Shown: piece after piece, positions 4,441 to 33,593 of the stretch
Layout of the letters: each line of letters begins with the position of its first letter
Numbering within the stretch: position 1 is the first letter of the stretch
Assembly: GCA_964638945.1 (NCBI GenBank)
Contig: CAZXCC010000001.1
Span: 47,945 to 111,944 of the forward strand
DNA from: an uncultured Veillonellaceae bacterium
GTDB lineage: Bacteria > Bacillota > Negativicutes > UBA1444
DNA: 64,000 nucleotides
Reading direction: 5' to 3'
Made by a program: the position numbers and the translations under genes
Notes under the pieces: model-generated
Seen by the model: only the letters and a program-made list of their open reading frames with translations
Database searches by the model: none
Told to the model about the DNA's origin: nothing

Positions 4441-4459
4441 CCGGAACGTGAGCGTGCTA

Positions 4460-5786: not shown

Positions 5787-5933
5787 TGTTTTGAAATGAA
5801 AATGATAAGTTGACCGCTGAAAATTGATGAAAAAATAAGTGGAATTCCAACCTTGCAATACAATCATACGGCGGACGAATGGCAATGAAGCCTGGCAAGA
5901 GATCTTGCGGGCTTTTTTGTTTGGAAGGCATAT

Positions 5934-5949
5934 TGGCACGGCTCTTGCA
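5934..5949 (+). promoter_or_regulatory. sigma-54 promoter TGGCACG-GCTC-TTGCA, near-perfect consensus, immediately upstream of the RBS/start of the first nicotinate cluster gene
   Basis: GG 5935-5936, GC 5947-5948; exact match to TGGCACG-N4-TTGCW. Confidence 0.75.
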
Positions 5950-5976
5950 TTGGTCTATAAAACGGAGGTGTGCACG

Positions 5977-6450
5977 TTGAATGTTGAAATAACTTGTAGG
6001 ATTAATGGCAAAGAAATTAACATGACGGTTCGGCCTGAAATGCTGTTGGTGGATTTCCTGCGTGATGAACTTGGTTTGACAGGAACGAAGAGAGGCTGCG
6101 GGATCGGTGAATGTGGCGCTTGCACGGTCATAATGGATGGACGCACAGTGGCATCTTGTATTGTTCCTGCCGCTTCGATCGACGGTTCGGATATTTTAAC
6201 GGTGGAAGGGCTGTCTGACGGAGAAAAACTCCATGTCCTTCAGCAGGCTTTCATCGACCATGGCGCAGTACAGTGCGGTTTTTGCACACCTGGGATGCTC
6301 TTGTCGGCAAAGGCTTTATTGGACAAAAATCCAAAACCGACACGGGAAGAGATCCGAGTGGCCATCTCTGGCAATGCATGCCGCTGTACAGGCTATACCA
6401 AAATTGTTGATGCGGTAGAATCAGTGGCAAAACTGGGAGGTGACGTTTGA
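5977..6450 (+). CDS. ndhS: nicotinate dehydrogenase (xanthine dehydrogenase family) 2Fe-2S small subunit
   Basis: two 2Fe-2S motifs CGIGECGAC and CGFCTPG; TTG start 8 nt after GGAGGTG; the ATG at 5839 would include the sigma-54 promoter and is judged less likely. Confidence 0.75.
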   Translation: MNVEITCRINGKEINMTVRPEMLLVDFLRDELGLTGTKRGCGIGECGACTVIMDGRTVASCIVPAASIDGSDILTVEGLSDGEKLHVLQQAFIDHGAVQCGFCTPGMLLSAKALLDKNPKPTREEIRVAISGNACRCTGYTKIVDAVESVAKLGGDV

Positions 6451-7721
6451 TGAACAATGCCGGCATTGGCAGTTCGGTTTTGAAGTCGGATGCGCTTGCC
6501 AAGGTGACGGGGCAGGCGTTATTCGCTGCTGACATGAAACGTCCGGGCATGTTGTTTTGCAAAGTGGTTCGCAACGAAAGCAAAATCGCGCATGCCGTGA
6601 TCGAAGGGATAGATGTGGCGGAAGCAGCGGCAACTCCTGGGGTTGTGGCAGTTTTTACGGCAAAAGACATTCCTGGAACGAACGGCGTCGGCATCATCCT
6701 GAAGGATGAACCGGTGCTCGCGGGGGAAAAAGTCCGTCGCCATGGCGACGCATTGGCTCTTGTCGTGGCTGAAACAGAAGAGATAGCAATTGCAGCAGGC
6801 AAGAAGGTTCGTGCCACATTGAAAGAACTGCCGGCGTATTTTGATCCCATAGCTGCGATGGCTCCTGACGCAGTCAAGATTCACGGATCATCCAATGTGC
6901 TGACCCTGCGCAAGGTTCGCAAGGGGGATGTAGAGGCGGCTTTTGCTGCTTCAAAGGTGATCATTGAAAGACGGTACACTACGCAGACGATTGAGCATGC
7001 CTATATAGAACCGGAAGCGGGATTGGCCGAATACGACGGCAGAATGGTGACGGTTTGGGTTTCAACGCAGAACGCACATTTTGACCGCAAAGAAGTGGCT
7101 CGCAACCTGGGGCTGGGAGTACATCAGGTTCGAATCGTTCAGGCTGTCACCGGCGGCGGGTTTGGCGGCAAACTTGATATTTCGGTGCAATGTTATCTGG
7201 CCCTGGCAGCTTACAAAACCGGGCGCCCGGTGAAAATGGTCTGGCAACGGGAAGAATCCATGATTGCATCAGCCAAGCGGCATCCGTACCTGATCGATTA
7301 CAAGACAGGCGCCGATGCGGACGGCAGGTTGCTGGCCGTGAAAGCAAATATCATTGGCGACTCAGGTGCCTACGCGTCTTATGGGCCGGCTGTGCTGACA
7401 AGGGCCGCGGTTCATGCTACCGGTCCCTATGAAGTGCCCAATGTCCATGTGGACGCATATGCCGTATACACAAATAACCCCCAGGCCGGAGCCATGCGTG
7501 GCTTTGGCGTGCCGCAGATGGCTTTTGCGCATGAGACGCAGATGGATCTTCTGGCGGAAGAACTGGGCCTCTCCCCCTTCGAAGTTCGCAGGAGGAATGT
7601 ATTGCGTCCGGGGGGGACGACTGCGACGGGCCAAGTGCTGGAACATAGTGTGGGCATCGGAATGACGCTGGAACAAGCCTGTAAGGAAGCAGAAAAATTG
7701 TTCCGCACGGGGGTACTGTAA
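6450..7721 (+). CDS. ndhL: nicotinate dehydrogenase molybdopterin subunit, N-terminal half (NdhL-like)
   Basis: aldehyde oxidase/xanthine dehydrogenase a/b hammerhead region; ATGA overlap with ndhS stop. Confidence 0.75.
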   Translation: MNNAGIGSSVLKSDALAKVTGQALFAADMKRPGMLFCKVVRNESKIAHAVIEGIDVAEAAATPGVVAVFTAKDIPGTNGVGIILKDEPVLAGEKVRRHGDALALVVAETEEIAIAAGKKVRATLKELPAYFDPIAAMAPDAVKIHGSSNVLTLRKVRKGDVEAAFAASKVIIERRYTTQTIEHAYIEPEAGLAEYDGRMVTVWVSTQNAHFDRKEVARNLGLGVHQVRIVQAVTGGGFGGKLDISVQCYLALAAYKTGRPVKMVWQREESMIASAKRHPYLIDYKTGADADGRLLAVKANIIGDSGAYASYGPAVLTRAAVHATGPYEVPNVHVDAYAVYTNNPQAGAMRGFGVPQMAFAHETQMDLLAEELGLSPFEVRRRNVLRPGGTTATGQVLEHSVGIGMTLEQACKEAEKLFRTGVL

Positions 7722-8774
7722 ATGAAGAAACGTGGTACAGGAATCGGTTGCATGTGGTATGGCATCGGCAATACGGGGCTTCCCAATCCGGCAGCGGCGT
7801 TTGTCGAATGGCTGGATGACGGGACGGCCAATTTGCTCGTCGGATGCGCGGATATAGGACAGGGATCGGATACCGCACTTGCCCAGATTGTGGCGGAAGA
7901 GCTCGGCATCAGTGCTGAAAACGTCATGGTCACCTCGGCTGACACGATGGTCACCCCTGAAGGCGGCGCTACAAGCGCCAGCCGACAGACTTACATTTCC
8001 GGCAACGCAGCACGCCTGGCGGCCAAGGAAGCCAAGCAGGTGGCGATTGCGGAAGCGAAAGAGATGTTGAAAACAACCGGCAATGTTGATTTTTCCCGTG
8101 GGTTCGTCTTGGTAGACGGAAAACCGGGAGAGCTTTCTGTGAAAGAAGTATTGGGCAGCTGTCGCATGAAGGGAAAACTCACGCTGGGACACGGGTGGTT
8201 CAATCCGGCGACAACAGGACTGGATACTGCCACGGGTGTAGGTTCGCCTTACGGAACATACGCTTTTGCCACGCAGGTGGCTGAAGTGGAAGTGGATACG
8301 GAAACCGGAAAAGTCGAAGTTCTTCGCCTCGTAGCTTCCCATGACGTTGGAAAGGCCATCAATCCCCAACTGGTCCAGGCGCAGATCGAGGGTGGCAGTG
8401 TCATGGGGGTCGGCTATGCCTTACTTGAGGAGATTAACGTTTCTGGCGGCCGCATTACAAATCCCAACTTTGATGCGTATCTTTTGCCCACTGCACTGGA
8501 TACGCCTGAGATTTATTCGTTTATCGTCGAAGATCACGAACCCACCGGCCCTTTCGGGGCGAAAGGCGTCGGGGAACCTGCTCTGATTCCAACTGCGGCG
8601 GCGATTGCCAATGCCGTGTACGACGCAATCGGTGTCAGAATCTATTCCCTGCCGATTTCTCCGGAACGGGTGCTCCAGGCGCTGGCAGAGAAAAAGAATG
8701 AGCAAAAGCCTGGCAACTGCAGTGGACCGGTATATGCGATTTGTTCAATCGGTGTGGAAGAAAGCAAGCCCTAA
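7722..8774 (+). CDS. ndhM: nicotinate dehydrogenase molybdopterin subunit, C-terminal half (NdhM-like)
   Basis: xanthine dehydrogenase family Mo-binding C-terminal region; clean TAA-ATG junction with GGGGGT RBS, mirroring the split 50+37 kDa L/M subunits of the E. barkeri enzyme. Confidence 0.75.
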   Translation: MKKRGTGIGCMWYGIGNTGLPNPAAAFVEWLDDGTANLLVGCADIGQGSDTALAQIVAEELGISAENVMVTSADTMVTPEGGATSASRQTYISGNAARLAAKEAKQVAIAEAKEMLKTTGNVDFSRGFVLVDGKPGELSVKEVLGSCRMKGKLTLGHGWFNPATTGLDTATGVGSPYGTYAFATQVAEVEVDTETGKVEVLRLVASHDVGKAINPQLVQAQIEGGSVMGVGYALLEEINVSGGRITNPNFDAYLLPTALDTPEIYSFIVEDHEPTGPFGAKGVGEPALIPTAAAIANAVYDAIGVRIYSLPISPERVLQALAEKKNEQKPGNCSGPVYAICSIGVEESKP

Positions 8775-8822
8775 TATCCGGGAGGCAGATTCCCGGCAAT
8801 CATGATAAGGAGAGTGACACAA

Positions 8823-9995
8823 ATGGCAAACCTAGTAATTACCAACATCGGCACAATTGTTTCAGGGGACATCGATTCTCCGATTCTCCAGGGTAACACC
8901 ATCGTTATCAAAGACGGAAAAATTGATGCCGTGGGAAATGCGGAACTGGTAGACGCTCTCAAAAAAGAATCGGTCGAATTCAAAACCATTGACGCAGGTG
9001 GTATGACAGTGACCCCGGGTCTGATTGATTCGCATGTTCATCCGGTCATCGGCGACTATACACCGAGGCAAAAGATGTCGGATTTTATCGACAGTTCCAT
9101 TCATGGAGGCGTGACTTCGATGATCTCCGCAGGGGAATGTCATACGCCGGGCCGTCCGACGGATCCGGCCGGTGTAAAAGCTCTGGCCATTCTGGCGAAA
9201 AAATCATTCGCAAATCTTAAGCCGGGCGGTGTGAAAGTTCATGCCGGCTCCGTGATTCTTGAAAAAGGGCTGACGGAAGCTGATTTTGCTGAGATGGCGG
9301 CAGCGGGTGTCAATATCGTCGGCGAGGTGGGCCTGGGTTCGGTAAAGAAGCCTGAAGATGCTGCGCCCATGGTGGCCTGGGCCAAGAAGCACAATATGAA
9401 AGTCATGATGCACACGGGCGGCACTTCGATTCCAGGTAGCTCCACAGTATCTGCAGATGACGTGATCAAAACGGACCCGGACGTAGTATCTCACATCAAT
9501 GGCGGCCCTACGGCGGTTTCATTGAAAGAGGTCGACAGGTTGCTTGACGAGACGCAGTTTGCATTGGAGATCGTACAGTGCGGCAACCCGAAAGTGGCTG
9601 ACTATGTGGCGCGCAAAGCGGCTGCCAAGAACCAGATGCATCGGATTATTTTCGGCAACGATGCTCCTTCCGGCACCGGCGTGATTCCTCTGGGGATTCT
9701 TCGAAACATCTGCCAGATTGCCAGCATATCTGAGATTCCTGCAGAAAAAGCCATTGCGATGGCTTCGGGAAACACTGCCCGTACTTATGGATTGAACACC
9801 GGAGTGATTGCGCCGGGAAAAGACGCGGATCTTGTGATTTTGGACACACCGATGGGCTCGGTCGGCAAGAATGCGCTGGAAGCGATTGAAGCCGGAGATT
9901 TGCCTGGAGTCGCGTTGGTACTTGTTGATGGAGTGATCAAGGTAAACAAGAGCCGCAATACTCCGCCGACAGTGGGAAAAGTAACGGGTGCCTAA
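8823..9995 (+). CDS. ena: enamidase-like amidohydrolase (1,4,5,6-tetrahydro-6-oxonicotinate amidohydrolase)
   Basis: amidohydrolase metal motif GLIDSHVHP; 390 aa, matching the about 386-aa E. barkeri enamidase; cluster context. Confidence 0.7.
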   Translation: MANLVITNIGTIVSGDIDSPILQGNTIVIKDGKIDAVGNAELVDALKKESVEFKTIDAGGMTVTPGLIDSHVHPVIGDYTPRQKMSDFIDSSIHGGVTSMISAGECHTPGRPTDPAGVKALAILAKKSFANLKPGGVKVHAGSVILEKGLTEADFAEMAAAGVNIVGEVGLGSVKKPEDAAPMVAWAKKHNMKVMMHTGGTSIPGSSTVSADDVIKTDPDVVSHINGGPTAVSLKEVDRLLDETQFALEIVQCGNPKVADYVARKAAAKNQMHRIIFGNDAPSGTGVIPLGILRNICQIASISEIPAEKAIAMASGNTARTYGLNTGVIAPGKDADLVILDTPMGSVGKNALEAIEAGDLPGVALVLVDGVIKVNKSRNTPPTVGKVTGA

Positions 9996-10016
9996 GGAAA
10001 CGGGAGGTTTGGAACA

Positions 10017-11525
10017 ATGATCATTGTCAAGAAGGAACTCTGCAAGGCCTGCGGCTTATGTGTCAAGAACTGTCCGGCAAGCGCGGTCAAAGTCATAGAC
10101 AAATTGGCCGTGGTGCAGGAGAATTGCGTCAGTTGCGGCGTCTGCGTCCGTGTCTGCCCTTTTCAGGCAATCATGCGCGAAGTGGAAATTGCTGCAGGCG
10201 CAGTTTCTTGCCGTTCATGCCCGGTCCAATGCGAAATCAAGGCAGGGTTTGAAGGTGCATGCAAACGCTATAGCAACATCAACGGAAAATTGGTGCGAAA
10301 CCGTGAACTGGTACTGGAAAATACCCGGTCTCAGGTGCCGGACCGGACAATCCCGGATAAGCCTCTGATTACTGCCGTAGGTGCGGGTACAGAGTATCCC
10401 TGCTGCCGTCCGGCCCCTCATATTGTCGGTGAGACGATCGACGGCATCGATGTGGTGACCGTAGTGACGGAAGCTCCGCTCAGTTACAGCGGTATCAAGG
10501 TAAAGATTGACGCCAACCGCCACATCGGCGAAGAAGGCGCGAAGATATTCAGGGACGGTGCGCTCGTCGGCATGGTGGACACCGAAGAGTATGGATCAAA
10601 GATGATTTACATCGGCGGAGCGAATATTCTGAGCGGGAAGAATGGATTTGCCGCGGCCCGGACCATTGTCGAACTGGCGAATGAAGAACGAGTGACACTG
10701 CAGGTCGAAAAAGGAAGCAAGCTGGAACTGCAGGTCGGTCACGCACCAATCATTGACGGTGTTGCCGAAAAGAAAATGCGTGTTGGTTGCGGCAGTGCAA
10801 CCGTCGGTATGTTTGCACGTATCATGAGTCAGGCAGTGGATGAAGCCATCGTGCTGGACCATCATGTTATTGGACTTCTGTCGGAACACCGGGCGGGTGA
10901 AGAGGTTGGAATGCGCTGGAGCGGCGTTGTTCCAAACGGCAGAAAAAGTACAAGGGGTAGATATTTCGGGGAGCATGGGCATGGTTGGGGCGGCACTCAT
11001 ATCGAAAAGCCTCTGGATGCAGTCAAGTCTGTAGATATGAGCATCGCCAGACAGGGCATGAAAATATTGGTTACCGAAACTACCGGGCAAAAAGGCGCAT
11101 TGCTGGAAGTGCAAGCGGATGGCAGTGTGCGCGAGATTCCGATGACTCCGGATGCTCAGGCCGCTGTCAACATGATTGTCGACAATTGTGAGGAAGCCAG
11201 GGTATCTGCCGTTTATGTCGGCGGAACCGGCGGCAGTGCGAGAGCAGGCGTGACGACCTATCCCATCAAGCTTTCACGCGCCGTGCATGCAGGGGAAGCA
11301 AAGTTGACAATCGGCGGGGCCATGGCCTACATCCTTCCGGGAGGCGGCATAAATTTTCTGGTGGATGTGGAAAAAGTGGAACCGAAGGCTTTTACCTGGG
11401 TTCCGACTCCTGCAACAGTAGCGCCGGTTGAATATACGATGACCCGCCGCAAATATGAAGAAATCGGTGGACATGTCGAGTCCATCAAACCCCTCTCCAC
11501 GCTCAAAAAGGCGAACAAAAAATGA
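10017..11525 (+). CDS. hnr: 6-hydroxynicotinate reductase-like protein with N-terminal 2x[4Fe-4S] ferredoxin domain
   Basis: CKACGLCVKNCP and CVSCGVCVRVCP motifs plus additional Cys clusters; position and size consistent with Hnr of the E. barkeri pathway. Confidence 0.6.
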   Translation: MIIVKKELCKACGLCVKNCPASAVKVIDKLAVVQENCVSCGVCVRVCPFQAIMREVEIAAGAVSCRSCPVQCEIKAGFEGACKRYSNINGKLVRNRELVLENTRSQVPDRTIPDKPLITAVGAGTEYPCCRPAPHIVGETIDGIDVVTVVTEAPLSYSGIKVKIDANRHIGEEGAKIFRDGALVGMVDTEEYGSKMIYIGGANILSGKNGFAAARTIVELANEERVTLQVEKGSKLELQVGHAPIIDGVAEKKMRVGCGSATVGMFARIMSQAVDEAIVLDHHVIGLLSEHRAGEEVGMRWSGVVPNGRKSTRGRYFGEHGHGWGGTHIEKPLDAVKSVDMSIARQGMKILVTETTGQKGALLEVQADGSVREIPMTPDAQAAVNMIVDNCEEARVSAVYVGGTGGSARAGVTTYPIKLSRAVHAGEAKLTIGGAMAYILPGGGINFLVDVEKVEPKAFTWVPTPATVAPVEYTMTRRKYEEIGGHVESIKPLSTLKKANKK

Positions 11526-12355
11526 TCAGGGAATTGGGGCCGGGCAAGGTTGCGCTTGATTTTGGTCCTACCCAGATGAATATTCATGTTTCCGGCGACA
11601 ATGCCGGTACCGGCATTGCGAAAGAAGCAGCGGATTACGCAATAAAGCTGGTTACGGAACTGGCGGGTTTTAAAACGATTGCAGCCAGGCCGCAAAGCGA
11701 AATCGGCACGCTGGAGGATCTGCCTGTCGTGCTCCAGAGAATGATCGAGTCTGTCAGAAAAACCGGGGATACGGATCTGACCCCCATGGCTGCAGTTGCC
11801 GGAACTCTATCGGACATGACTGCAGACTGGCTTTTTGCCAGAGGCGTCTCGAAGGTTATCGTCAACAATGGCGGCGATATTGCGATAAGACTCTCGGGAG
11901 AACAACGAGCCACGGTTGGCATTGCACCGGCCTTGGGCATGCCGCCGACCCACGTTCTGCATATCGGTGCAGCCGATGGCATCGGCGGTGTGACAACAAG
12001 CGGTTCAGGCGGACGAAGTTTCACCAAAGGAATTGCCACCGCCGCCACCGTTGCGGCAAAAACGGCGTCGATAGCCGACGCCTGCGCCACAAGCATCGGC
12101 AACGCAACCTTTTCTCCCCATCCATCCATCCGCATGGCTAGAGCGGAAGAAATCGATCCATTGACTGACATCGCAGGGCACTGGGTGGTTCGGGACGTGG
12201 GAGAACTGCCGCAGGAAACGGTTCAGGCAGCTCTTGAAAACGGATGGATGAGGGCAAAAAGCTATTTGGACAGAGGGATCATCAAAGGATGCGTTATCTT
12301 TATCGGACAAGCTGGAGTGGTGCTGCCGGAAGGGCTAGTGACTCCCTTGCCGTAA
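11522..12355 (+). CDS. conserved hypothetical protein, Gly/Ala-rich, in nicotinate cluster (possible Hnr accessory)
   Basis: ORF 277 aa translationally coupled (ATGA) to hnr; no motif recognised. Confidence 0.45.
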   Translation: MIRELGPGKVALDFGPTQMNIHVSGDNAGTGIAKEAADYAIKLVTELAGFKTIAARPQSEIGTLEDLPVVLQRMIESVRKTGDTDLTPMAAVAGTLSDMTADWLFARGVSKVIVNNGGDIAIRLSGEQRATVGIAPALGMPPTHVLHIGAADGIGGVTTSGSGGRSFTKGIATAATVAAKTASIADACATSIGNATFSPHPSIRMARAEEIDPLTDIAGHWVVRDVGELPQETVQAALENGWMRAKSYLDRGIIKGCVIFIGQAGVVLPEGLVTPLP

Positions 12356-12376
12356 AAATTAAGAGGAGGGTATATT

Positions 12377-12961
12377 ATGGAACTGGAAATTCGTAAGATT
12401 GTAACTGTTGTGGAAGAAACCTGCAAGGAAGCCGGACGCAAACTGGAAAAACCGACGCGCAAAGCTGCGGCGATGGCTGTTGTTGCCAATCCGTATGCGG
12501 GGCAATATGTGGAAGACCTGAATCCGCTGATTGATGCCTGCCTGCCGCTCGGAGAGCTCTTGACCAAACGTGCAGTGGAAGCATTGGGCATTGCGCCTGA
12601 AAAAGTAGAAAGCTATGGCAAGGCGGCTATCGTAGGCATAAATGGCGAACTGGAGCATGCCGCGGCGCTGCTGCATCCCAAACTCGGGACACCGATCCGC
12701 GATAATGTCGGCGGAGGAAAGGCAATTCTGCCTTCAACCAAAAAAGTCGGTGGACCAGGAACGGCGATCGATGTATCACTCGGATTCAAAAACGCCGCAT
12801 ACGTGCGGACTCACTTCGATGCAATGGAAGTACGGATTGCCGATGCTCCACGGGACAATGAAATTGTCCTTATCGTTGCTGTGACTGATTCGGGCCGTCC
12901 GCTGGCGCGTGTGGGCGGATTGACTGTGGATCAGGTCAAAGGCGAAGACGGATTGCGCTAA
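12377..12961 (+). CDS. amino-acid-synthesis (AA_synth/DUF1185) family protein, function unknown
   Basis: N-terminal MELEIRKIVTVVEE... and length about 190 aa typical of that family (from memory). Confidence 0.5.
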   Translation: MELEIRKIVTVVEETCKEAGRKLEKPTRKAAAMAVVANPYAGQYVEDLNPLIDACLPLGELLTKRAVEALGIAPEKVESYGKAAIVGINGELEHAAALLHPKLGTPIRDNVGGGKAILPSTKKVGGPGTAIDVSLGFKNAAYVRTHFDAMEVRIADAPRDNEIVLIVAVTDSGRPLARVGGLTVDQVKGEDGLR

Positions 12962-12974
12962 ACAAAAAATATAG

Positions 12975-13007
12975 TTGCTAGAACAAGGAAATTCCTTGTT
13001 CTAGCAA
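12975..13007. other. perfect 15-bp stem / 3-nt loop hairpin (TTGCTAGAACAAGGA aat TCCTTGTTCTAGCAA) between cluster genes; U-run lies on the minus-strand side
   Basis: base pairing verified by eye, 15/15 pairs. Confidence 0.6.
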
Positions 13008-13024
13008 AATTGGGGGGAAGAAAG

Positions 13025-13912
13025 GTGCGTATCGGATTTATCGGTATCGGAGCCATGGGAAAACCGATGGCGCTGAACCTTCTAAAGGCTGGCCATGAAC
13101 TGTATGTTTTTGATGTCGTGGCAGCTGCGGTGGCAGACATGGTTGCTCAGGGGGGGCAGGCATGCACGTCGCCCAAAGAGCTTGCGCAGAAGACGGAAGC
13201 AGTTATTACAATGCTGCCCAATGCCAAGATTGTGGAAAGTACACTGACAGGTGAAAACGGGCTTTTAGCCGGCTCACGTCCCGGACAGGTTTTCATCGAC
13301 ATGAGCAGTGTCTCCGCTGGCAGTACGAAACTGATGGCCAAACTCGCCGGTGAAAAAGGGGTCGGCTATGTGGATGCACCGGTAAGCGGCGGGGTGGCTG
13401 GCGCTACGGCTGGAACACTGACCATCATGGTTGGGGGAAGTGTGGATGACGTTGCGAAAGTACAACCCATACTGCAGGCTATGGGGAAAAACATCCACCA
13501 TGTCGGAGAAGTGGGTGCGGGTGATTCCATCAAGGTCGTCAACAATCTGCTGCTCGGGATCAATATGGCAGCGGTTGCTGAAGCGTTGGTGCTCGGAGTG
13601 AAATCCGGCCTGTCGCCCCAGGTCATGCTTGATATCATCAAGGGGAGCTCCGGCCGAAGTTATGCGTTGGAGGCGAAGACTCCGGGCTTTATCCTGAAAA
13701 ATAATTTTGCAGCCGGATTTGCCATCGACCTGCAGTACAAGGATCTGGAACTGGCGGCCGAAACGGCAAAAAGTCTGGGAATGCCGCTTCCGCTGGGATC
13801 CATGGCGCAACAGATTTTTGAAATGGCCAGGGCCAAGGGACTGGGGCGCGAGGATATTTCAGCAGTGATCAAGGTGTGGGAAGAACTGGTCGGCGTGCAA
13901 GTGAGGGAATAG
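13025..13912 (+). CDS. hgd: 2-(hydroxymethyl)glutarate dehydrogenase-like (3-hydroxyisobutyrate dehydrogenase family, NAD-binding)
   Basis: GFIGIGAMGKPMALNL Rossmann motif; about 296 aa; cluster context. Confidence 0.75.
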   Translation: MRIGFIGIGAMGKPMALNLLKAGHELYVFDVVAAAVADMVAQGGQACTSPKELAQKTEAVITMLPNAKIVESTLTGENGLLAGSRPGQVFIDMSSVSAGSTKLMAKLAGEKGVGYVDAPVSGGVAGATAGTLTIMVGGSVDDVAKVQPILQAMGKNIHHVGEVGAGDSIKVVNNLLLGINMAAVAEALVLGVKSGLSPQVMLDIIKGSSGRSYALEAKTPGFILKNNFAAGFAIDLQYKDLELAAETAKSLGMPLPLGSMAQQIFEMARAKGLGREDISAVIKVWEELVGVQVRE

Positions 13913-13919
13913 AAGGTAG

Positions 13920-15344: not shown

Positions 15345-15355
15345 GAGGAACGGTC

Positions 15356-16564
15356 GTGAATTTTATAGAAAAATATCTGGCTGCTGCGGCCGGTCTTGAA
15401 AAGGTAAGTGTAGGGCAAGATTTGCGCTGCCGGGTGGATCTGGCACTCAGCCATGACGTTACTGCGCCGATAGCCATTCAACAATTCGAACAGATTGGCA
15501 TCGACCATGTGTTTGATCCAGCCAAAGTGGTCCTGGTCATCGACCACATCTTTCCCGCATCGACCGTCCAGGCCCGGACTTCACATTGGATCATGAAAGA
15601 TTTTGCAGCAAAATTCGGTGTCACACTGTATAGCAAAGGGGAAGGCGTCTGCCACCAGCTCCTGTCGGAGCGGCATCGTTTGCAACCGGGGCAGATTCTG
15701 GTGGGGGCAGACTCACACACTTGTACAGCCGGCGGTTACGGCGTGATCGGAATCCCTGTCGGATCGACGGAACTGGCTGCTGCGATGGCGACCGGTACAA
15801 TCGACCTGGAAGTTCCACCTGTGGTCGAAGTCTTCATGACTGGCGCCCTGAATCCCGGCGTAAGCGGCAAGGACATCGTTCTGAGCCTGATCAAGCGTTT
15901 CGGCGTCGATGGGCTTACAGACAAGGCGGTTGTTTTTACTGGCCCGGGAATTACAGGAATTTCTACAGGGGAACGGATGACGATCTGTAATATGGGAATC
16001 GAGATGGGCGCAATGATTGCCTGCTTTGGAGAGGAAACCAAAGCGGAGGATGTTGCGGAAAGCATTCCGCTGGAGCTGGAAAAACTGGTTCCGCTTGCGG
16101 CCTGTCCGCATTCACCAGCCAATGTTCGCCCGGTTTCCGACCTGAAGGACGTATCGGTAACCCAGGTGGTGGTCGGCAGTTGTACGAACGGGAGACTGAA
16201 CGACATGGAAAAAGTAGTCGATGTGCTCAGAAACCATAAAGTTCATCCCGATGTAAACTGTCTGATAATCCCCGCATCGAAAAACATACTGGATGCGATG
16301 GAAGAACAAGGCTGGTGCAAAATTTTGCGCGATGCCGGCGCTGTGGTGGCAAATCCCGGTTGTGGCCCGTGTTTTGGCGCTCATCAGGGATTGGGCACGG
16401 AACGCGACGTGATCGTATCCACCACGAATCGTAATTTCCCAGGACGAATGGGGCACCGGACCGCGAATATCTATCTTGCTTCACCCGCTACGGCAGCTGC
16501 ATCGGCGGTGACCGGGAAAATTACCGAACCAGGTTCGCTGGCAGCCGGAGGTGATTTGAAATGA
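15356..16564 (+). CDS. dmdA: dimethylmaleate hydratase large subunit (aconitase/LeuC family)
   Basis: GADSHTCTAGG aconitase-family motif; GTG start after GGAGG. Confidence 0.75.
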   Translation: MNFIEKYLAAAAGLEKVSVGQDLRCRVDLALSHDVTAPIAIQQFEQIGIDHVFDPAKVVLVIDHIFPASTVQARTSHWIMKDFAAKFGVTLYSKGEGVCHQLLSERHRLQPGQILVGADSHTCTAGGYGVIGIPVGSTELAAAMATGTIDLEVPPVVEVFMTGALNPGVSGKDIVLSLIKRFGVDGLTDKAVVFTGPGITGISTGERMTICNMGIEMGAMIACFGEETKAEDVAESIPLELEKLVPLAACPHSPANVRPVSDLKDVSVTQVVVGSCTNGRLNDMEKVVDVLRNHKVHPDVNCLIIPASKNILDAMEEQGWCKILRDAGAVVANPGCGPCFGAHQGLGTERDVIVSTTNRNFPGRMGHRTANIYLASPATAAASAVTGKITEPGSLAAGGDLK

Positions 16565-17055
16565 AGACAATCAAGGGTCGTGTATGGGTTTTTGACGACA
16601 ATGTGGATACCGATCAGATACTGCCTGGCTATGCAATGGCCGAGGCTGCAGCTTCCCTGGGACGTTTTGCCATGGCTGGCAGCAAGATTCCGGATTTCTC
16701 CGGCAAGGTTCAAGCCGGTGACATTATTGTCGCAGGCAAAAACTTCGGCTGCGGTTCCAGTCGGGAGCAGGCGCCGGTTGCGCTGAAACTGGCAGGAGTC
16801 AGTCTGCTCATTGCTCCCTCTTTTGCCCGGATTTTTCGCCGGAATTCCATCAATATCGGATTGCCGGTGATGTTGGGAGATATTCGGGAGGAAGTCAAAA
16901 CAGGAGATATTATCGAAGTGGATATTGAAAGCGGCGTTATTGTCGCTGCGGAGAGAAAACTGTCAGCTCAACCTCTGGCGCCCAATGTGCTGGCAACGGT
17001 GCGGGCCGGCGGCCTGATCAACCGTGTCCGCCAAGAACTGGGTATTGCAAACTGA
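16561..17055 (+). CDS. dmdB: dimethylmaleate hydratase small subunit (LeuD-like)
   Basis: 164 aa LeuD-like swivel domain; ATGA overlap with dmdA. Confidence 0.75.
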
Positions 17056-17080
17056 ACGATATACTGCAGGAGGAACCAAA

Positions 17081-18928
17081 ATGCAAGAAAAAACCATGCG
17101 GATTATTACCGAGGACTATGACAGAGTAAAAGCATATTCGGAAACCTTTGCCGTTCCCATGCCGACCCTGGGCAAGGATGGATCGGTGGATGGTCTGCCG
17201 GCTCCATATCCGCGGGAAGTCTGCGGTGTCCAGCGCAGCGGCTACCGGATTTATGAACTGGCACAACAAGCTGAAAAAACAGGGATTCCTGTGCAGAATC
17301 CGATACTTGGGCGCAATACGGCGGAAGAAACCTATAAAGAATCGGTTGAAATGTATAATATGGCCGAAAAACTGGGCATCAAAATATTCCATTTTGTGCA
17401 CTCGGAAGCTACGCGCCATATCGATCCCTTGAACGGACGAGAACTGATCGAACAGTCGCGCGGCAAGGGCGGCATTACGCCGATGGGTGAACGAAAACTG
17501 GTGGAACTGGGCGGAGGCTCGATTCATCCGATGCGGATCAATGCAACAGGGGATACTCCGCATCTTTCGATCATCAACGCCCTGCTGGCCGGATTTGACG
17601 GAACGGACATCGGACCGGTCATTCATGTGCACTTCGGCGGCCGAGGCATCCATGACTACAAGACCAAAGTGGTAAACGGATTCCGCGCCTTGGAAATTTG
17701 TGCCGAGCACAATATGTTCGTGCAAATTGAGTCGCACAAGCACTTGAATAATATCGGCGGAACGGATGGGATGGCTCTGGCCATGTGTCTGCTGGCAGAA
17801 GGCTTGGGCGTTCTTGCCGGTCTGCCTCCGGAACTGAGCGCAGTGCAGATGAATGTGACAGGATTGAACTTGCTCGGAGATCTCGCATCAATGCGTGCCT
17901 TCAAGGAAACCATGTGGAGCAAGAGCCTGATCGTAGTGCCGGAAACCTTCCAGAATCCTCCGGGCGACCTGATTGCTGAATCGGCGCACTTTGCCCGGAT
18001 GGCGATTAGTGCAAAGCTTGGAGGCGCCCACTTCTACCGTCCGAAAGCAGCCGAGTCCGTGGGAATTCCCACTGGCGGCTCCATGGCAAAAGCGATCTGG
18101 GGAACACAAAACGTGTTCGAAAACACGGTGAAAGTGGAAATCCACGATCCGTACATCGAAGTCCGGAAAAATGAAATTCTTGATGAAGCCATGGCGGTGC
18201 TGGAAGGCGTTCTGGGCATCGGCCGTACGCTGGCGCCTGATGAAATCAACGAGAAATTCTGGCGCAAATATGACAAGGATGAACTGAGTGAAAAAATTGT
18301 CACTGCAGGCAAAGCCGGAATAATGGACTGCCCGCGCGCCGGCGGCTGGGATTTGAAACGCCATGTGCGAACGCACCGTGACAAAGACGGTATCAAACGA
18401 TATGTTCCGGGTTTCACTCCGTTGGGCGTGGATTCCGCACGTATGGCGATCACGACGGAACCGGTGGAAGTGCCGGAAGTGAAAAAACCTACCCGCAAGC
18501 AAAAAATGGTGCTGGCGACAGTTGGCGCCGATGCTCACGTCATGGGAATCAACATGATCAAGGAAGCTTTCGAAAAAGCCGGCTACGAGGTGATTTACCT
18601 CCGCGGCATGAACCTGCCGGAAACAGTGGCGGAAGTAGCGGCTGAAGCCAAGGCCGAGATTATTGGCATTACGAACCTTCTCGGGATGGGCCGCGAATTG
18701 TTCCCGAGGGTGCAGAAACGTCTGCAGGAACTGGGGATGAGCGATAAGGTCCTGCTCATCGCTGGGGGCCGGATTGCCGAAAAAGAAGAAGAACATGCCT
18801 ATTTTGAAGAAAAAATCGCCAAAGAAGGTCCGACTTTCCTCGGAGTGGAGAATTTCTTCGGGCCGGGCACCGATCCGGTCAAATGTGTCGAGTGGACCGC
18901 AAAAGCACTTGAAAGGAAGGGTCTGTAA
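17081..18928 (+). CDS. mgm: 2-methyleneglutarate mutase (adenosylcobalamin-dependent)
   Basis: C-terminal B12-binding domain with [12 protein letters not shown] (DxHxxG) motif; 615 aa, same as the E. barkeri enzyme; GGAGG RBS. Confidence 0.8.
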
Positions 18929-20061
18929 TGGGAGATATGCGTCGAATTCCCTGTGTAATTTTGCGTGGCGGCACAAGCAAAGGGATATATCTGAAATCCA
19001 ACCATCTGCCTCAGGATAAAGAAGCGCGGGACAAAGTCATTCTGGAGATTTTTGGCAGTCCGGATGTCCGACAGATTGACGGATTGGCCGGCGCCGACCC
19101 ATTGACAAGCAAAGTGGCAATCATTGGGCCGTCCACTCATCCCGGAGCCGATGTGGACTATACCTTTGGCCAGGTCAGCATCAACGCACCCTATATTGAC
19201 TATTCCGGAAACTGCGGCAATATTTCGTCGGGGGTGGGGCCGTTTGCAATCGACGAAGGTTTTGTCGCTGCGACCGGTTCCATGACCACAGTTCGGATTC
19301 ACAACACCAATACGGGAAAAATTCTGATTGCCGAAGTTCCGACGGAAGACGGTCTCGCAAAAGTAAACGGCGACTGCAAGATCGACGGAGTACCCGGTAC
19401 CGGCGCCCAAATCATGATGGACTTTTCCGGCACGGCGGGTTCGGTGACAAACAAACTGCTGCCGACAGGCAATCCTGTTGATACCATCAACACCAGCGCC
19501 GGCCCTTTGCAAATTTCGATCGTGGATGTGTCCAATCCCTGCGTGTTTGTCAGAGCAAAAGATGTGGGCATGAAAGGCGGCGAGACGCCCCAGGAAGTCA
19601 ACGGGAATCCGAAATTGCTGGGTCTCATGGAGGAAATCCGTGCCCAGGCCTGCGTGATGATCGGCATGGCGCCGGATGTGGCTACCGCCACAGCCAAGAG
19701 CCCGGCATTCCCAATGGTGGCCTATGTGTCCCCTGCGGCGGATTATGTTGATTTCACCACAGGCAAGACCATCAGCAAAGATCAGATCGATTTCATTTCC
19801 CGCATGATGTTCATGCAGGTGCTGCACAAAACCTACCCGGGAACCGGCACGGCATGTACCGGCGCAGCGGCGAAAATTCCGGGAACAATTGTCAACGAAG
19901 CAATCCCGCATATTGACTCCATCAAGATTATCCGCATCGGGCATCCGGCAGGAGTGATCGAGATTGAGGCCGCTTTTGAAAAAGGCGAGTTGTCAAGGGC
20001 TGCGTTTGCCCGAACGGCAAGGCGCATTATGGAAGGGTACGTCTACGTCAGAAATTCGTGA
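18928..20061 (+). CDS. mii: 3-methylitaconate delta-isomerase (PrpF family)
   Basis: PrpF-like N-terminus IPCVILRGGTSKG; 377 aa; TAATG overlap with mgm. Confidence 0.75.
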   Translation: MGDMRRIPCVILRGGTSKGIYLKSNHLPQDKEARDKVILEIFGSPDVRQIDGLAGADPLTSKVAIIGPSTHPGADVDYTFGQVSINAPYIDYSGNCGNISSGVGPFAIDEGFVAATGSMTTVRIHNTNTGKILIAEVPTEDGLAKVNGDCKIDGVPGTGAQIMMDFSGTAGSVTNKLLPTGNPVDTINTSAGPLQISIVDVSNPCVFVRAKDVGMKGGETPQEVNGNPKLLGLMEEIRAQACVMIGMAPDVATATAKSPAFPMVAYVSPAADYVDFTTGKTISKDQIDFISRMMFMQVLHKTYPGTGTACTGAAAKIPGTIVNEAIPHIDSIKIIRIGHPAGVIEIEAAFEKGELSRAAFARTARRIMEGYVYVRNS

Positions 20062-20083
20062 TTCATACGGGGAGTGAAAAGAC

Positions 20084-21520
20084 ATGAAGGCAAACCTTCT
20101 CGTATATGATGTCGGCAGCACCTACACCAAACTGACCGCTTTCCAGCTGGAAAAAGGCGTTCTGGATTATGTTGGCCGTTCCCAGTCCCCGACGACGATT
20201 CAGGATATTGAAATCGGTGTGCAGTCCGCACGGAGTTCGCTCGCGGAACAAGGGTTTGAAATCAGCCGGGATGCTGCTGTGTTTTCTACCAGCAGCGCAG
20301 CCGGCGGCCTCAGAATGGTGGCTCTTGGTTATATGCCGCGGGTTACGGCAAAAGCTGCCAAAGAAGTGGCCATGAGCGCCGGGGCCCGGGTGCTGGAAAT
20401 CGTCAGTTATGAAGATCCGCCGGAATATCGGCTGCAGGTACTTCGGGAAATCAAGCCGGATATCGTTCTCCTCGCTGGCGGCACGGATGGTGGCGATCAG
20501 GATTCCATGCTGGAAAATGCCCGGATCATCGTGCAATCAAAAATCAAGGCCGTCATCATCATTGCCGGGAATAAGGAAGCGCAGGGCGGAGTGGCGGAAA
20601 TCCTGAAACAGGGCGGAGTGGGATATGTCCGCGTGCCAAACGTCATGCCAACAATCCATGAGCTGAAAGTGAAGCCCGCGCGGGAGGCAATCCATGAACA
20701 GTTCATCAAACAGATTACTTTGGCAAAAGGATTAAATAAACTTCTTGATATCGTTTCCGACAAAAAGGTGACTCCGACGCCGGGGGCTGTTCTTTTGGGT
20801 GCAGAATTGCTGGCAAAAGGAACTTTTGAACAGGACGGTGTTGGAGAGGTCCTTGTCATTGACATTGGCGGCGCCACAACCGATATCCATTCCGTGTTGC
20901 CTGACCTTGATAAACTGACAATCGAGGAAAAAGGTCTGGTCATAACGAATGAAAAGCAACCTTCCTACCGGACCGTTGAAGGCAATCTGGGTCTCAGGAT
21001 CAGTGCCACAGGCATCGTGGAGACAGTGGGACCCCAGGGGGTTTTGGCCAAAATCGGCAAAAAGGAGGAAGAGCTGCAGGAAAGACTGACGGAGTACACG
21101 GCTTTCCTGGAAAAGAACCCCGAGCACATCAGCCAGTCTGAAGAAGAAAAGGAATTTGACCTGGCTCTTGCTATTGCCGCCATCGAGGTGGCGCTAAAAA
21201 GACATGCCGGCTATATTTCTCAGGAATTCAATCCGGTTATGGGCATTATTCCGGGAACACCTATCGGCCGAGATCTTCGCCGTGTCAGGCATGTGATCGC
21301 CGTGGGCGGAATCTTTACCCACCGAACTCCGGCAGAAAAATTATATGTATTGGAGCAGGCTTTTGCCAATCCGGGAATCTCGTTGCTTCCTGATGAACCC
21401 CATTTTATAGTGGATGAGCAGTATCTGCTCTACGCGATAGGTGTTCTCGGGCAAAAATACAGTGACGCCTGCCTGGATTTTGCCAGAAGGCAGTTCAATA
21501 TCGAAAAAAAAGGAGACTGA
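20084..21520 (+). CDS. GlmL/MutL-like ASKHA-fold protein, probable B12-mutase reactivating chaperone
   Basis: N-terminal LLVYDVGSTYTKLTAF actin-like phosphate-1 motif; about 480 aa like glutamate mutase GlmL; adjacent to the B12 mutase. Confidence 0.5.
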   Translation: MKANLLVYDVGSTYTKLTAFQLEKGVLDYVGRSQSPTTIQDIEIGVQSARSSLAEQGFEISRDAAVFSTSSAAGGLRMVALGYMPRVTAKAAKEVAMSAGARVLEIVSYEDPPEYRLQVLREIKPDIVLLAGGTDGGDQDSMLENARIIVQSKIKAVIIIAGNKEAQGGVAEILKQGGVGYVRVPNVMPTIHELKVKPAREAIHEQFIKQITLAKGLNKLLDIVSDKKVTPTPGAVLLGAELLAKGTFEQDGVGEVLVIDIGGATTDIHSVLPDLDKLTIEEKGLVITNEKQPSYRTVEGNLGLRISATGIVETVGPQGVLAKIGKKEEELQERLTEYTAFLEKNPEHISQSEEEKEFDLALAIAAIEVALKRHAGYISQEFNPVMGIIPGTPIGRDLRRVRHVIAVGGIFTHRTPAEKLYVLEQAFANPGISLLPDEPHFIVDEQYLLYAIGVLGQKYSDACLDFARRQFNIEKKGD

Positions 21521-21521
21521 C

Positions 21522-22394
21522 ATGAAAAAAACAACGATGCTGAGACAATTGCTGGCTCAGAAAAACATTCTGGTGGCGCCGGGAGCGCATGACGCTCTTT
21601 CGGCAAAAATTGTTGCACAGGCTGGCTTTGATGCGGTCTATTTTACCGGGTACGGTCAGGCGGCAAGCCACTTGGGCGGACCTGACGTCGGACTCATGAC
21701 GATGACCGAAATGGTAATGCGTGCCCGTAATTTTGCGGCTGCAGTCGATATTCCGGTGATTGCCGACGGCGACACGGGGTTCGGCAATGTAATCAACGTG
21801 ATCCGTACAGTAAGGGAATATGAAGCAGCCGGGGTGGCGGCCATACAGCTTGAAGATCAGGTTGCACCGAAGAAATGCGGTCACATGACAGGCAGGCAGG
21901 TTGTGGCGCTGGAAGAAATGGTCGGAAAGATCAAGGCGGCGGTTTCGGCCAGGCAGGATCCTGATTTCGTGATCATCGCCCGTACAGACGCCCGAACGAA
22001 CCTGGGAATTGAAGAAGCGCTGCGTCGAGGGAAGGCGTTTGCCGAAGCCGGTGCGGATGTTCTGTTCATCGAGTCTCCGGAAAGTCTGGAAGAAATGAAA
22101 TTGATCACATCAAGCTTCAATGTTCCTGTATTGGCGAATATGGTCGAAGGGGGCCGTACTCCGCTTATGACGGCAAAAGAACTGCAGGAACTGGGCTACG
22201 GCCTGGTCATCTTCCCCACTTCATCCACATATATTACGGCGCAGGCGGTCACCCGATGCATGCAGGAATTGAAGACCAACGGGACAACAAAAGCGTTGCT
22301 GAACGAGATGATCCCGTTTCAGCAGTTTAACGAACTGGTTGGTTTGCCTGGGGTGCGCGAGATCGAAAACAAATTCCTGCCGCCTCAAAAATAG
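21522..22394 (+). CDS. dml: 2,3-dimethylmalate lyase (isocitrate lyase / PEP mutase superfamily)
   Basis: methylisocitrate-lyase-like sequence, 290 aa; ATG at 21522 with AAAGGAG RBS (the ORF-track start at 21441 is upstream of this). Confidence 0.75.
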   Translation: MKKTTMLRQLLAQKNILVAPGAHDALSAKIVAQAGFDAVYFTGYGQAASHLGGPDVGLMTMTEMVMRARNFAAAVDIPVIADGDTGFGNVINVIRTVREYEAAGVAAIQLEDQVAPKKCGHMTGRQVVALEEMVGKIKAAVSARQDPDFVIIARTDARTNLGIEEALRRGKAFAEAGADVLFIESPESLEEMKLITSSFNVPVLANMVEGGRTPLMTAKELQELGYGLVIFPTSSTYITAQAVTRCMQELKTNGTTKALLNEMIPFQQFNELVGLPGVREIENKFLPPQK

Positions 22395-22413
22395 CCCTGG
22401 AAGGAGGCTGCAT

Positions 22414-23295
22414 ATGAGTTACATGTATTACGCGCCTAGAACCATGTCGGAACTTTTGCAAGTACTGGCCGAAAAGAAGGATGGCGCAATGATCATTGCG
22501 GGTGGAACGGATGTTATGGTCGAAATCCGTGCAGGACATGCGCCACAGAGTCTGGTCGACATTACGAAGATTCCTGAAATGAAAGGAATCAGGCGTGAAG
22601 GGGACAGGATCCACATCGGGCCTGCAACGACTTTTACAGATATCGTGGAATCAAAAATAATCCGTGAGAGTGCTTTTGTGCTGGCTCAGGCGGCTGTATC
22701 TGTTGGTTCTCCCCAGATCCGAAACCGCGGGACTGTTGGCGGAAACATTGTCAAAGGCTCGCCTGCCGCCGACTCGGTTCCGGCTCTGGTAGCGCTCGAA
22801 GCCAGGCTTCGGCTTGTATCCGGGGCTGGTGAAAGGGAACTGGGTATCGAAGAGTTTCTCGTCGGCGTTTGTAAAACAGCCATCCTTCCTGGCGAAGTAT
22901 TGGTCGATATTTCATTCAAGGCTCTGGCCCCAAAGACCGGCAGCGCTTTTGTCAAACTGGGCCGAAGGAATGCGCTCGCTATTTCTCGGGTGAGCGTGGC
23001 CGCAATCATTGGTTACGACGAAGTAGAAATGACCTGTACTGACTGTCGAATTTCCGTGGGCTCTGTGGCAAAAAATCCGTTTCGGGTCAGAACGGCCGAA
23101 GATATCTGGCAGAGCTGCAGTCTTACACATAGCAACCGGGACCTCTGCGTCGAAGCGGCGCTCAGGGAGATTAGCGTGACGCTTGGAGAACGGGCTTCGG
23201 CCGTGTATAAGAAACAGGCGGGTCCTGCCATCATCAGGCGCGCTGTCGATTCGGCGCTGGGACAGGTTTTTGGCGGATGGGAACAAGTTCTCTAA
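22414..23295 (+). CDS. ndhF: nicotinate dehydrogenase FAD-binding subunit (CoxM/XdhB-like)
   Basis: FAD-binding AGGTDVMV motif; 293 aa; GGAGG RBS. Confidence 0.8.
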   Translation: MSYMYYAPRTMSELLQVLAEKKDGAMIIAGGTDVMVEIRAGHAPQSLVDITKIPEMKGIRREGDRIHIGPATTFTDIVESKIIRESAFVLAQAAVSVGSPQIRNRGTVGGNIVKGSPAADSVPALVALEARLRLVSGAGERELGIEEFLVGVCKTAILPGEVLVDISFKALAPKTGSAFVKLGRRNALAISRVSVAAIIGYDEVEMTCTDCRISVGSVAKNPFRVRTAEDIWQSCSLTHSNRDLCVEAALREISVTLGERASAVYKKQAGPAIIRRAVDSALGQVFGGWEQVL

Positions 23296-23348
23296 GCTGA
23301 AGATAGAGACATATTTCCATAGTTTTCTCTAATATAGTTTTTGGACAT

Positions 23349-33592: not shown

Positions 33593-33593
33593 T

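Follow-up and report, generated by a model that had tools for sequence, protein, structure and literature searches.

The stretch of DNA analysed here, which we call the window, comprises 64,000 nucleotides from an uncultured Veillonellaceae bacterium (GenBank assembly GCA_964638945.1, contig CAZXCC010000001.1, positions 47,945 to 111,944 of the forward strand); all coordinates below are positions within the whole of this 64-kb window and refer to the + strand unless stated. Between 5977 and 23295 it carries 16 intact, co-directional open reading frames on the + strand with no internal stops, in the order ndhSLM-ena-hnr-apbE-AA_synth-hgd-hmd-dmdAB-mgm-mii-mgmL-dml-ndhF. Sequence comparisons indicate that this locus is very probably a catabolic operon through which a Negativicutes host close to Anaeroselena and Sporomusa ferments nicotinate anaerobically, in the manner of Eubacterium barkeri. 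A single co-directional run of 16 genes had been described in the original prediction, made from the letters of the sequence, and is borne out by the open reading frame list of the window. The same prediction called the genes translationally coupled. The spacers between them measure, from 5' to 3', -4, 0, 48, 21, -4, 21, 48, 7, 11, -4, 25, -1, 22, 1 and 19 nt, and since only about five junctions overlap or abut, the term fits the tight packing and some gene pairs, but not all of them. Position 5934, where the run was said to begin, is the first base of a promoter motif, TGGCACGGCTCTTGCA, and not a gene start; ndhS begins with a TTG start codon at 5977, preceded by GGAGGTG, and position 23295 is the stop of ndhF, with no terminator directly after it.

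Four of the genes encode the subunits of a predicted nicotinate dehydrogenase: ndhS (5977..6450; Pfam Fer2_2 and Fer2) the [2Fe-2S] subunit, ndhL (6447..7721) and ndhM (7722..8774) the large and medium molybdopterin subunits, which are the N-terminal and C-terminal halves of a split molybdenum subunit, and ndhF (22414..23295; Pfam FAD_binding_5 and CO_deh_flav_C), at the 3' end of the run, the flavin adenine dinucleotide (FAD) subunit. Enamidase is encoded by ena (8823..9995) and the Fe-S protein 6-hydroxynicotinate reductase by hnr (10017..11525), whose stop is overlapped by an ApbE-like gene (11522..12355), followed by a PF06684 (AA_synth/DUF1185) gene (12377..12961; Pfam 253 bits). Further downstream lie hgd (13010..13912) for 2-(hydroxymethyl)glutarate dehydrogenase, hmd (13920..15344) for a serine-dehydratase-like 2-(hydroxymethyl)glutarate dehydratase with a weak SDH_alpha match, and dmdA (15356..16564; Pfam Aconitase) and dmdB (16561..17055; Pfam Aconitase_C) for the large and small subunits of an aconitase-family dimethylmaleate hydratase. 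These are followed by mgm (17081..18928) for a coenzyme B12-dependent 2-methyleneglutarate mutase, mii (18928..20061) for a 3-methylitaconate isomerase of the PrpF fold, mgmL (20084..21520; Pfam MutL 463 bits) for a mutase accessory protein of the GlmL/MutL family, and dml (21522..22394) for a 2,3-dimethylmalate lyase of the PEP mutase/isocitrate lyase superfamily. Pfam domain architectures agree with every enzyme named in the original prediction. The 2Fe-2S, split MoCoBD_1 and MoCoBD_2, and FAD_binding_5 subunits make up the dehydrogenase set, and the remaining proteins comprise an amidohydrolase, a protein with a double [4Fe-4S] N-terminus, a 3-hydroxyisobutyrate-dehydrogenase-like and a serine-dehydratase-alpha-like protein, an aconitase large and small pair, a protein with a C-terminal B12-binding domain, and PrpF, MutL/GlmL and PEP_mutase/ICL family members.

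Comparison with the PDB gave, for five proteins, a score against the E. barkeri structure that was 1.6- to 18-fold that of the next entry: enamidase (2vun, 565 bits against 31), Mii (3g7k, 561 against 256), NdhL (3hrd_A, 420 against 223), Hgd (3cky, 361 against 228) and NdhM (3hrd_B, 340 against 175). Enamidase, Hgd and Mii, for which the original prediction had pointed to available structures, thus matched the E. barkeri entries far above all others, while for Dml the PDB search alone was not diagnostic. The split molybdenum subunit is present in the window, where the only full-length PDB matches for NdhL and NdhM are chains A and B of 3hrd; a split molybdopterin subunit is reportedly unique to nicotinate dehydrogenase.

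A search with the 2vun sequence also retrieved a 20-kb contig, L087, that encodes a 97%-identical enamidase, and since it encodes an Ena with 96.8% and an NdhM with 98.5% identity to the E. barkeri proteins in the PDB, it can represent the E. barkeri cluster. Each of the 16 window proteins has a reciprocal best match, within the cluster, among the genes of this near-E. barkeri contig, at identities from 32% to 68%: NdhS 54%, NdhL 51%, NdhM 51%, Ena 68%, Hnr 60% (501 of 502 residues), the ApbE-like protein 40%, the PF06684 protein 54%, Hgd 59%, Hmd 51% (full length), DmdA 41%, DmdB 47%, Mgm 68% (614 of 615 residues), Mii 66%, MgmL 51%, Dml 60% and NdhF 32%. Characteristic motifs are retained as well. 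Mgm has the DAHVMG (DxHxxG) motif at residue 484; its homologues include proteins of Anaeroselena agilis (92% identity) and Sporomusa ovata (89%), and some homologues carry source names such as '2-methyleneglutarate mutase' or 'mgm'; KKCGH is conserved in Dml, and the cluster motifs SCTN and CGPC are present in DmdA. Three Cys motifs are present in Hnr, and across 62 of its orthologues two CxxCxxCxxxC(P) motifs, C65/C68/C72/C82 and GCGSA are at least 97% conserved. On the combined evidence of PDB scores, the 16 reciprocal best matches and these motifs, every enzyme assignment originally made for the run held.

The operon is preceded by a predicted sigma-54 promoter of the -24/-12 type, TGGCACGGCTCTTGCA (5934..5949, + strand), 43 nt before ndhS. 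Nowhere else in the 64 kb is TGGCAC-N5-TTGCA matched exactly, and 0.07 such matches would be expected by chance; what had been described as a near-perfect sigma-54 promoter is an exact match to the consensus. The motif is also conserved in orthologous loci. An identical promoter sequence lies 42 nt before ndhS in locus L047, and close variants occur in L085 and L086, two ENA metagenome contigs. Around ena, 80 genome loci were fetched, 61 of them with hnr; in 18 of the 80, orthologues (40-84% identity) of a sigma-54 enhancer-binding protein (EBP) encoded in the window at 2127..3725 (+ strand) lie upstream of the nicotinate cluster, and in 13 of these 18 a -24/-12 motif separates the EBP gene from the first gene of the cluster. 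EBP orthologues are likewise found in L084 (Sporomusa ovata, CP146301.1:1373974-1395821), L085 and L086. The window EBP (Pfam Sigma54_activat 233 bits, AAA_lid_14, and HTH_8 38 bits) consists of two tandem sensor repeats of about 95 residues, 34% identical to each other (E value 5e-13), followed by an AAA+ domain with Walker A at residue 242 and GAFTGA at residue 289, and then a Fis-type helix-turn-helix. Its central and C-terminal parts resemble PrdR (376 bits, under the cut-off of 795).

Three copies of a palindrome, starting at 5553, 5763 and 5783, all lie in the 386-nt intergenic region upstream of ndhS. A motif scan located the first predicted upstream activating sequence, UAS1, as a perfect TTTCA-N4-TGAAA palindrome, TTTCAAAAATGAAA, at 5553..5566; UAS2 and UAS3, TTGCAATAATGAAA and TTTCTGTTTTGAAA, are 20 bp apart at 5763..5796 and lie in a block that is conserved in an alignment of the upstream regions of four loci (the window, L085, L086 and L047). 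Across 16 loci, TTTCA-N4-TGAAA occurs 16 times in 4.8 kb upstream of predicted promoters as against nine times in 363 kb elsewhere, an enrichment of about 130-fold, and of the eight matches with at most one mismatch in the whole window three fall at 5553..5796. We predict that these sites, at typical enhancer distance, are the binding sites of the EBP. Just upstream of the promoter, a hairpin followed by a T run (5881..5925, + strand; -19.5 kcal/mol, z-score -2.7) is kept in all four aligned loci and probably terminates read-through from the upstream gene. Because Rfam gave no matches anywhere in the window, the conserved hairpin is not a known riboswitch.

Several observations weigh against this reading of the locus, some of them concerning the enzymes and others the control. 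NdhF is not discriminated by the PDB comparison, with 137 bits against 3hrd_C and 127 against CutM, and NdhS is not diagnostic either, since 3hrd_D ties with 4zoh_C at 171 bits; both subunits were assigned from cluster context, not from PDB scores. DmdA and DmdB are less than half identical to the E. barkeri-type pair, and only about 33% identical to the pair of Acetobacterium bakii, and we infer their substrate from the conserved position of the genes beside mgm and mii. In 18 loci dmdB lies directly 5' of mgm. As a separate observation, DmdA and DmdB of A. bakii and its relatives (L001-L003) share no more than about 33% and 29-46% identity, respectively, with those of all other clusters (loci compared: L001 18855..20677, L087 18185..19954, window 15356..17055), and the biochemically characterised dimethylmaleate hydratase may perhaps represent a minority lineage. 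As for NdhF, it is the fastest-evolving subunit in all clusters, with 30-58% identity between clusters, and the window protein is 81% identical to the product of the A. agilis gene at the same position. Replacement of ndhF by a non-orthologous gene was considered and rejected: because NdhF evolves fastest everywhere, divergence and relocation suffice.

The divergence of the dehydrogenase also bears on the possibility that the true substrate is another pyridine or N-heterocyclic carboxylate, such as directly imported 6-hydroxynicotinate or a substituted analogue of nicotinate, feeding the same lower pathway. Such a substrate would accommodate the identity of only 51% between NdhL or NdhM and the E. 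barkeri enzyme, the highly divergent NdhF, and a transporter of the MFS family here where the E. barkeri-type cluster has an EIIC-like one. We nevertheless regard it as unlikely, since the split NdhL/NdhM architecture and a PDB match far above other molybdenum hydroxylases indicate nicotinate dehydrogenase, the dehydrogenase genes occur together with hnr and ena in 44 loci, and all steps after 6-hydroxynicotinate are orthologous to those of the E. barkeri type.

On the side of control, the EBP sensor has no significant match to any Pfam family, only sub-threshold Cache hints, and its single-sequence AlphaFold model has a predicted local distance difference test score (pLDDT) of 42; for these two reasons the ligand of the EBP is a guess. 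The palindrome was found in 12 of the 16 loci, with L047, L037, L043 and L066 lacking it. The 152-nt gap before the transporter gene downstream of ndhF could contain a separate promoter. Neither rpoN nor genes for the selenium and molybdenum cofactors lie within the 64-kb window, and none of selD, yqeB and yqeC was seen there. The rpoN gene presumably lies elsewhere in the genome, and a second EBP gene in the window, at 30575..32062, suggests that the organism uses sigma-54. Could the promoter motif then be incidental, with a sigma-70 promoter or read-through from the upstream gene driving the operon? A scan of the window allowing one mismatch found no enrichment (6 matches against 3.5 expected), a point in favour of an incidental motif. 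Against this stand the exact match 43 nt before the start codon, the conservation of the motif in orthologous loci beside an orthologous EBP gene, the conserved palindromes at typical enhancer distance, the terminator-like hairpin directly upstream of the motif, and the lack of any sigma-70-like match within 5548..5976, and together they make an incidental motif very unlikely.

The catabolic operon reading also draws on how widely the gene set recurs. At least 585 stretches of GTDB species genomes encode a relative of the enamidase with an identity of 59% or higher, and their hosts include, among the matches listed, Oscillospiraceae, Lachnospiraceae, Acetobacterium, Moorella, Desulfitobacterium, Desulfosporosinus, Desulfobacterales and a Treponema. 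For Mgm, at least 120 clusters are 70% or more identical to the window protein, and the same gene set surrounds ena in dozens of genomes. The pathway had been described as known from very few organisms, which is accurate for the biochemical literature but not for the genes, which are widespread. Their source names are mostly generic ('amidohydrolase family protein', 'cobalamin-dependent protein'), although some pipelines use 'ena', 'Enamidase' or 'mgm'. Because NCBIfam has no nicotinate-specific models, the top-scoring models for the window proteins are those for xanthine dehydrogenase, LeuCD/HacAB, GlmS/GlmL, PrpF and PrpB; scores lie under the equivalog cut-offs for xanthine dehydrogenase, LeuCD, HacAB, GlmS, GlmL, PrpF and PrpB, with DmdA and DmdB under those for LeuC and HacA, and MgmL exceeds the cut-off of 204 for glmL_fam with a score of 312. 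A chance juxtaposition of a purine/xanthine dehydrogenase, LeuCD or homoaconitase, glutamate mutase with GlmL, and PrpF and PrpB of the methylcitrate cycle, families that do head the NCBIfam results, is hardly credible given scores below all equivalog cut-offs, E. barkeri structures scoring higher by a wide margin, 16 of 16 reciprocal best matches to the near-E. barkeri cluster and the same genes together in many genomes, and the descent from unrelated xanthine dehydrogenase, LeuCD and glutamate mutase that the original prediction had named as its possible undoing is thereby excluded.

Three genes of the run, the ApbE-like gene, the PF06684 gene and the GlmL-like mgmL, had been described as additional, interleaved genes. 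Their coordinates were exact, but they are not insertions, since all three are also present in L087 as well as in most other clusters. The ApbE-like gene is adjacent to hnr, directly downstream, in 48 of the 61 hnr-bearing loci, and the PF06684 gene lies near ena in 70 of 80. Judged by this conserved neighbourhood, the ApbE-like protein is a putative accessory partner of Hnr and the PF06684 protein a putative accessory partner of enamidase; the two PF06684 structures in the PDB, 2qtp and 3byq, were both deposited as uncharacterised. Hnr is reported to contain covalently bound flavin, and the idea that the ApbE-like protein is its flavin transferase would be a guess. ApbE orthologues of this kind carry the precomputed assignment PF27030 AbpE_bact. 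Targets of ApbE have the flavinylation motif D-x-x-[S/T]-G-A-[S/T] (PMC12052999), which occurs neither in Hnr nor in any other protein of the unit. Flavinylation of Hnr by the ApbE-like protein was therefore unsupported when tested: with this canonical motif absent and a weak Pfam ApbE match of 30.6 bits, the protein is better described as a partner of Hnr than as a demonstrated flavin transferase.

At its 3' end the unit continues beyond ndhF. A gene at 23448..24806 (+ strand) encodes an MFS transporter resembling aromatic acid/H+ symporters (Pfam MFS_1 200 bits; TIGR00895 295 bits, under the cut-off), which is found at the same position in A. agilis with 84% identity; MFS genes are also present in 14 other clusters, and the protein is probably a nicotinate importer. 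A terminator search found none between ndhF and the MFS gene, and an intrinsic terminator at 24823..24880 (+ strand; -30.5 kcal/mol, z-score -6.6, T8) closes the unit. From the terminators, we predict three transcription units: the EBP gene with a methyltransferase gene, a gene for a short chemotaxis-like protein running to the 5881..5925 hairpin, and ndhS through ndhF together with the MFS gene. Since no terminator parts ndhF from the MFS gene, the functional unit, at about 2127..24880, is wider than the 5934-23295 first reported and reaches from the regulator module at 2127 to the terminator near 24880.

Upstream of the promoter, the EBP gene is followed by a gene for a class I S-adenosylmethionine-dependent methyltransferase (3772..4440, + strand; Pfam Methyltransf_25/12/11, below all NCBIfam equivalog cut-offs), and an intrinsic terminator follows this pair (4506..4550, + strand; -23.7 kcal/mol, z-score -4.65, with a T run). 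Homologues of the methyltransferase lie beside nicotinate clusters of distant lineages (L084 7559..8227, L085 4844..5530, L086 5178..5873 and the end of L001), the gene being placed directly before dmdA in S. ovata and after dmdB in A. bakii. The next gene, at 4708..5547 (+ strand), encodes a short soluble protein with a methyl-accepting chemotaxis protein (MCP) signalling domain (Pfam MCPsignal 104 bits) and an N-terminal Cache/PAS-like domain, for which the Cache hints are weak (E value 0.002); its position is conserved in L085 and L086, which share with the window the EBP, the methyltransferase, the short MCP module and the promoter. The N-terminal domain of this short MCP-like protein, compared with that of the EBP, showed no significant similarity to it. 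A second short soluble MCP-domain protein, 50% identical to the first, is encoded at 54187..55032 on the - strand. Sigma-54-like sequences lie upstream of both genes, CGGCACGATTCTTGCA at 4596..4611 (+ strand), 97 nt from the first, and TGGCATAGTTTTTGCT at 55102..55117 (- strand), 70 nt from the second, and in this organism such small proteins, combining Cache/PAS and MCP domains, may be a family under the control of sigma-54. The upstream flanks of the unit differ between loci, with a histidine ammonia-lyase gene in the window (514..2076) and in L085 (852..2378) and rpsF-ssb-rpsR in L086 (1933..2859), and the genes 3' of the unit differ between A. agilis and the window; the regulator-plus-operon unit seems to move as a block.

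Compared with the E. barkeri type, represented by L087, the window contains the same 16 gene families, including split NdhL/NdhM and the ApbE-like, PF06684 and MgmL genes. The original prediction of a rearranged cluster is correct, since the order in L087 is lysR(-) / hnr apbE hgd ndhF ndhS ndhL ndhM EIIC-like ena AA_synth mgm mii mgmL dml hmd dmdA dmdB. Sigma-54 control had likewise been put forward as a departure from that type, and L087 has no -24/-12 motif anywhere and carries a divergent LysR gene where the window has an EBP and a sigma-54 promoter; the transporter is PTS_EIIC_2-like in L087 and MFS in the window. In A. bakii (L001) the order is essentially that of L087, except for an inserted dCache chemoreceptor gene that follows the ApbE-like one. 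This chemoreceptor, a dCache-HAMP protein of 1024 residues by Pfam (L001 2135..5209), lies inside the nicotinate cluster, and together with the short MCP-like gene of the window it hints at taxis towards nicotinate.

The closest arrangement is that of A. agilis (GCA_032334055.1, JAUOZS010000001.1:3625746-3647593, a stretch that begins at ndhL), in which the gene order is identical to that of the window from ndhL through ndhF and the MFS gene, with 64-92% protein identity, and in which the source name of Mgm is the generic 'cobalamin-dependent protein'. Other Sporomusaceae (L027, L040 and L042) keep ndhF in front of ndhS, and S. ovata splits the cluster (...AA_synth hgd hmd ndhF / lysR(-) / 283-aa ORF / EBP / 64-aa ORF / methyltransferase / dmdAB mgm mii mgmL dml), from which we conclude that the relocation of ndhF is specific to the lineage of the window. 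The S. ovata locus contains both a LysR-type regulator and an EBP, and its 283-aa open reading frame has no Pfam match. The upper part of the pathway (Ndh, Hnr and Ena) is reported to occur in Proteobacteria and in Azorhizobium caulinodans. An ndh-hnr-ena(-AA_synth) module recurs alone in many loci, to which the window adds the complete lower pathway in one operon; a partial upper nicotinate pathway (Ndh, Hnr, Ena) is also mentioned in PMC9304392. Identities between L047 and the window (5977..20061) are 81-91% from ndhS to the PF06684 gene and 54-71% from hgd to mii, with 54% for the EBP. From this apparent mosaic it seems that recombination exchanges two modules separately, one for the upper pathway (nicotinate to 2-formylglutarate) and one for the lower.

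For the control of the unit, the closest parallels are the sigma-54/EBP regulons for amino-acid and other fermentation, for example those of PrdR and OrdR, surveyed in Clostridiales (Nie et al. 2019, PMC6615313). With these the window shares an EBP gene beside a catabolic operon, as well as inverted-repeat enhancer sites and a promoter of the -24/-12 type. Nicotinate, enamidase and methyleneglutarate go unmentioned in the survey; the enhancers it gives for many groups are of the TGT-N10-12-ACA type, as against TTTCA-N4-TGAAA in the window, and unlike PrdR- and OrdR-type systems the window EBP has a sensor made of two tandem repeats, each of about 95 residues and unclassified. In the literature searched, we found no account of nicotinate clusters controlled by sigma-54.

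In the pathway we propose, with the chemical steps taken over from E. barkeri, NdhSLMF would hydroxylate nicotinate to 6-hydroxynicotinate, Hnr would reduce the ring to give 1,4,5,6-tetrahydro-6-oxonicotinate, and enamidase would open it to yield 2-formylglutarate and ammonia. Hgd would then reduce 2-formylglutarate to 2-(hydroxymethyl)glutarate, which Hmd would dehydrate to 2-methyleneglutarate; the B12-dependent Mgm, serviced by MgmL, would convert this to 3-methylitaconate, Mii would isomerise 3-methylitaconate to dimethylmaleate, DmdAB would hydrate dimethylmaleate to dimethylmalate, and Dml would cleave dimethylmalate to propionate and pyruvate. The genes would be transcribed as a single transcript of about 19 kb, from the sigma-54 promoter at 5934 to the terminator near 24880, with the hairpin just upstream of the promoter blocking read-through. 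The tandem sensor repeats of the EBP would detect nicotinate or an early intermediate, and the protein, bound to the TTTCA-N4-TGAAA palindromes 140-380 bp upstream, would activate the promoter. The sequences themselves show the gene content and order, the orthology, and the conservation of promoter and palindromes; we infer what the enzymes do, what induces the operon, its need for selenium and rpoN, and where the transcript begins and ends.

Several other genes lie downstream of the unit. An open reading frame at 25729..28719 encodes a protein of 996 residues with a weak response-regulator receiver match and a PEP-utilising PPDK_N domain. At 28965..32062, a glutamate dehydrogenase-like gene is followed by that of the second EBP, which has PAS and sigma-54 AAA+ domains, and then, at 32393..37076, by genes for FAD oxidoreductases and an aldehyde dehydrogenase; the genes at 28965..37076 may constitute another sigma-54-controlled catabolic unit. 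A 955-residue open reading frame at 39386..42253 has no Pfam matches.

The enzymes of the nicotinate operon are ordinary orthologues of those of a well-characterised pathway, and their enzymology is not new; the arrangement, where visible, is already in the public A. agilis genome. Only the predicted control by sigma-54, EBP and palindromes and the unexplained conserved accessory genes appear to be undescribed, a testable but incremental addition. We also considered, tentatively, a broader joint reading, which is possible but which as a whole we think somewhat doubtful: that the locus exemplifies an undescribed sigma-54 nicotinate regulon with a new EBP sensor and enhancers, a linked sensing module, and ApbE-like and PF06684 proteins that are necessary to the pathway. 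Such a regulon may extend over Sporomusaceae-like Negativicutes, Desulfitobacteriaceae, Peptococcaceae and some Clostridia metagenome-assembled genomes. Its EBP may bind TTTCA-N4-TGAAA when its new tandem sensor domain responds to nicotinate or 6-hydroxynicotinate, a linked sensing or taxis module may consist of the methyltransferase and the short soluble MCP-like protein, which are conserved together, and the ApbE-like and PF06684 proteins may be necessary for the Hnr and enamidase steps, respectively.

The biochemistry of the anaerobic nicotinate pathway is said to have been studied almost only in E. barkeri. The distribution found here suggests that the full gene set is common in anaerobes, among them gut Oscillospiraceae and Lachnospiraceae, acetogens, sulfate reducers and Negativicutes. 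The predicted set of regulator, promoter and operators may offer a nicotinate-responsive switch, and the ApbE-like and PF06684 genes, which are conserved and have no assigned step in the textbook pathway, provide a second practical lead.

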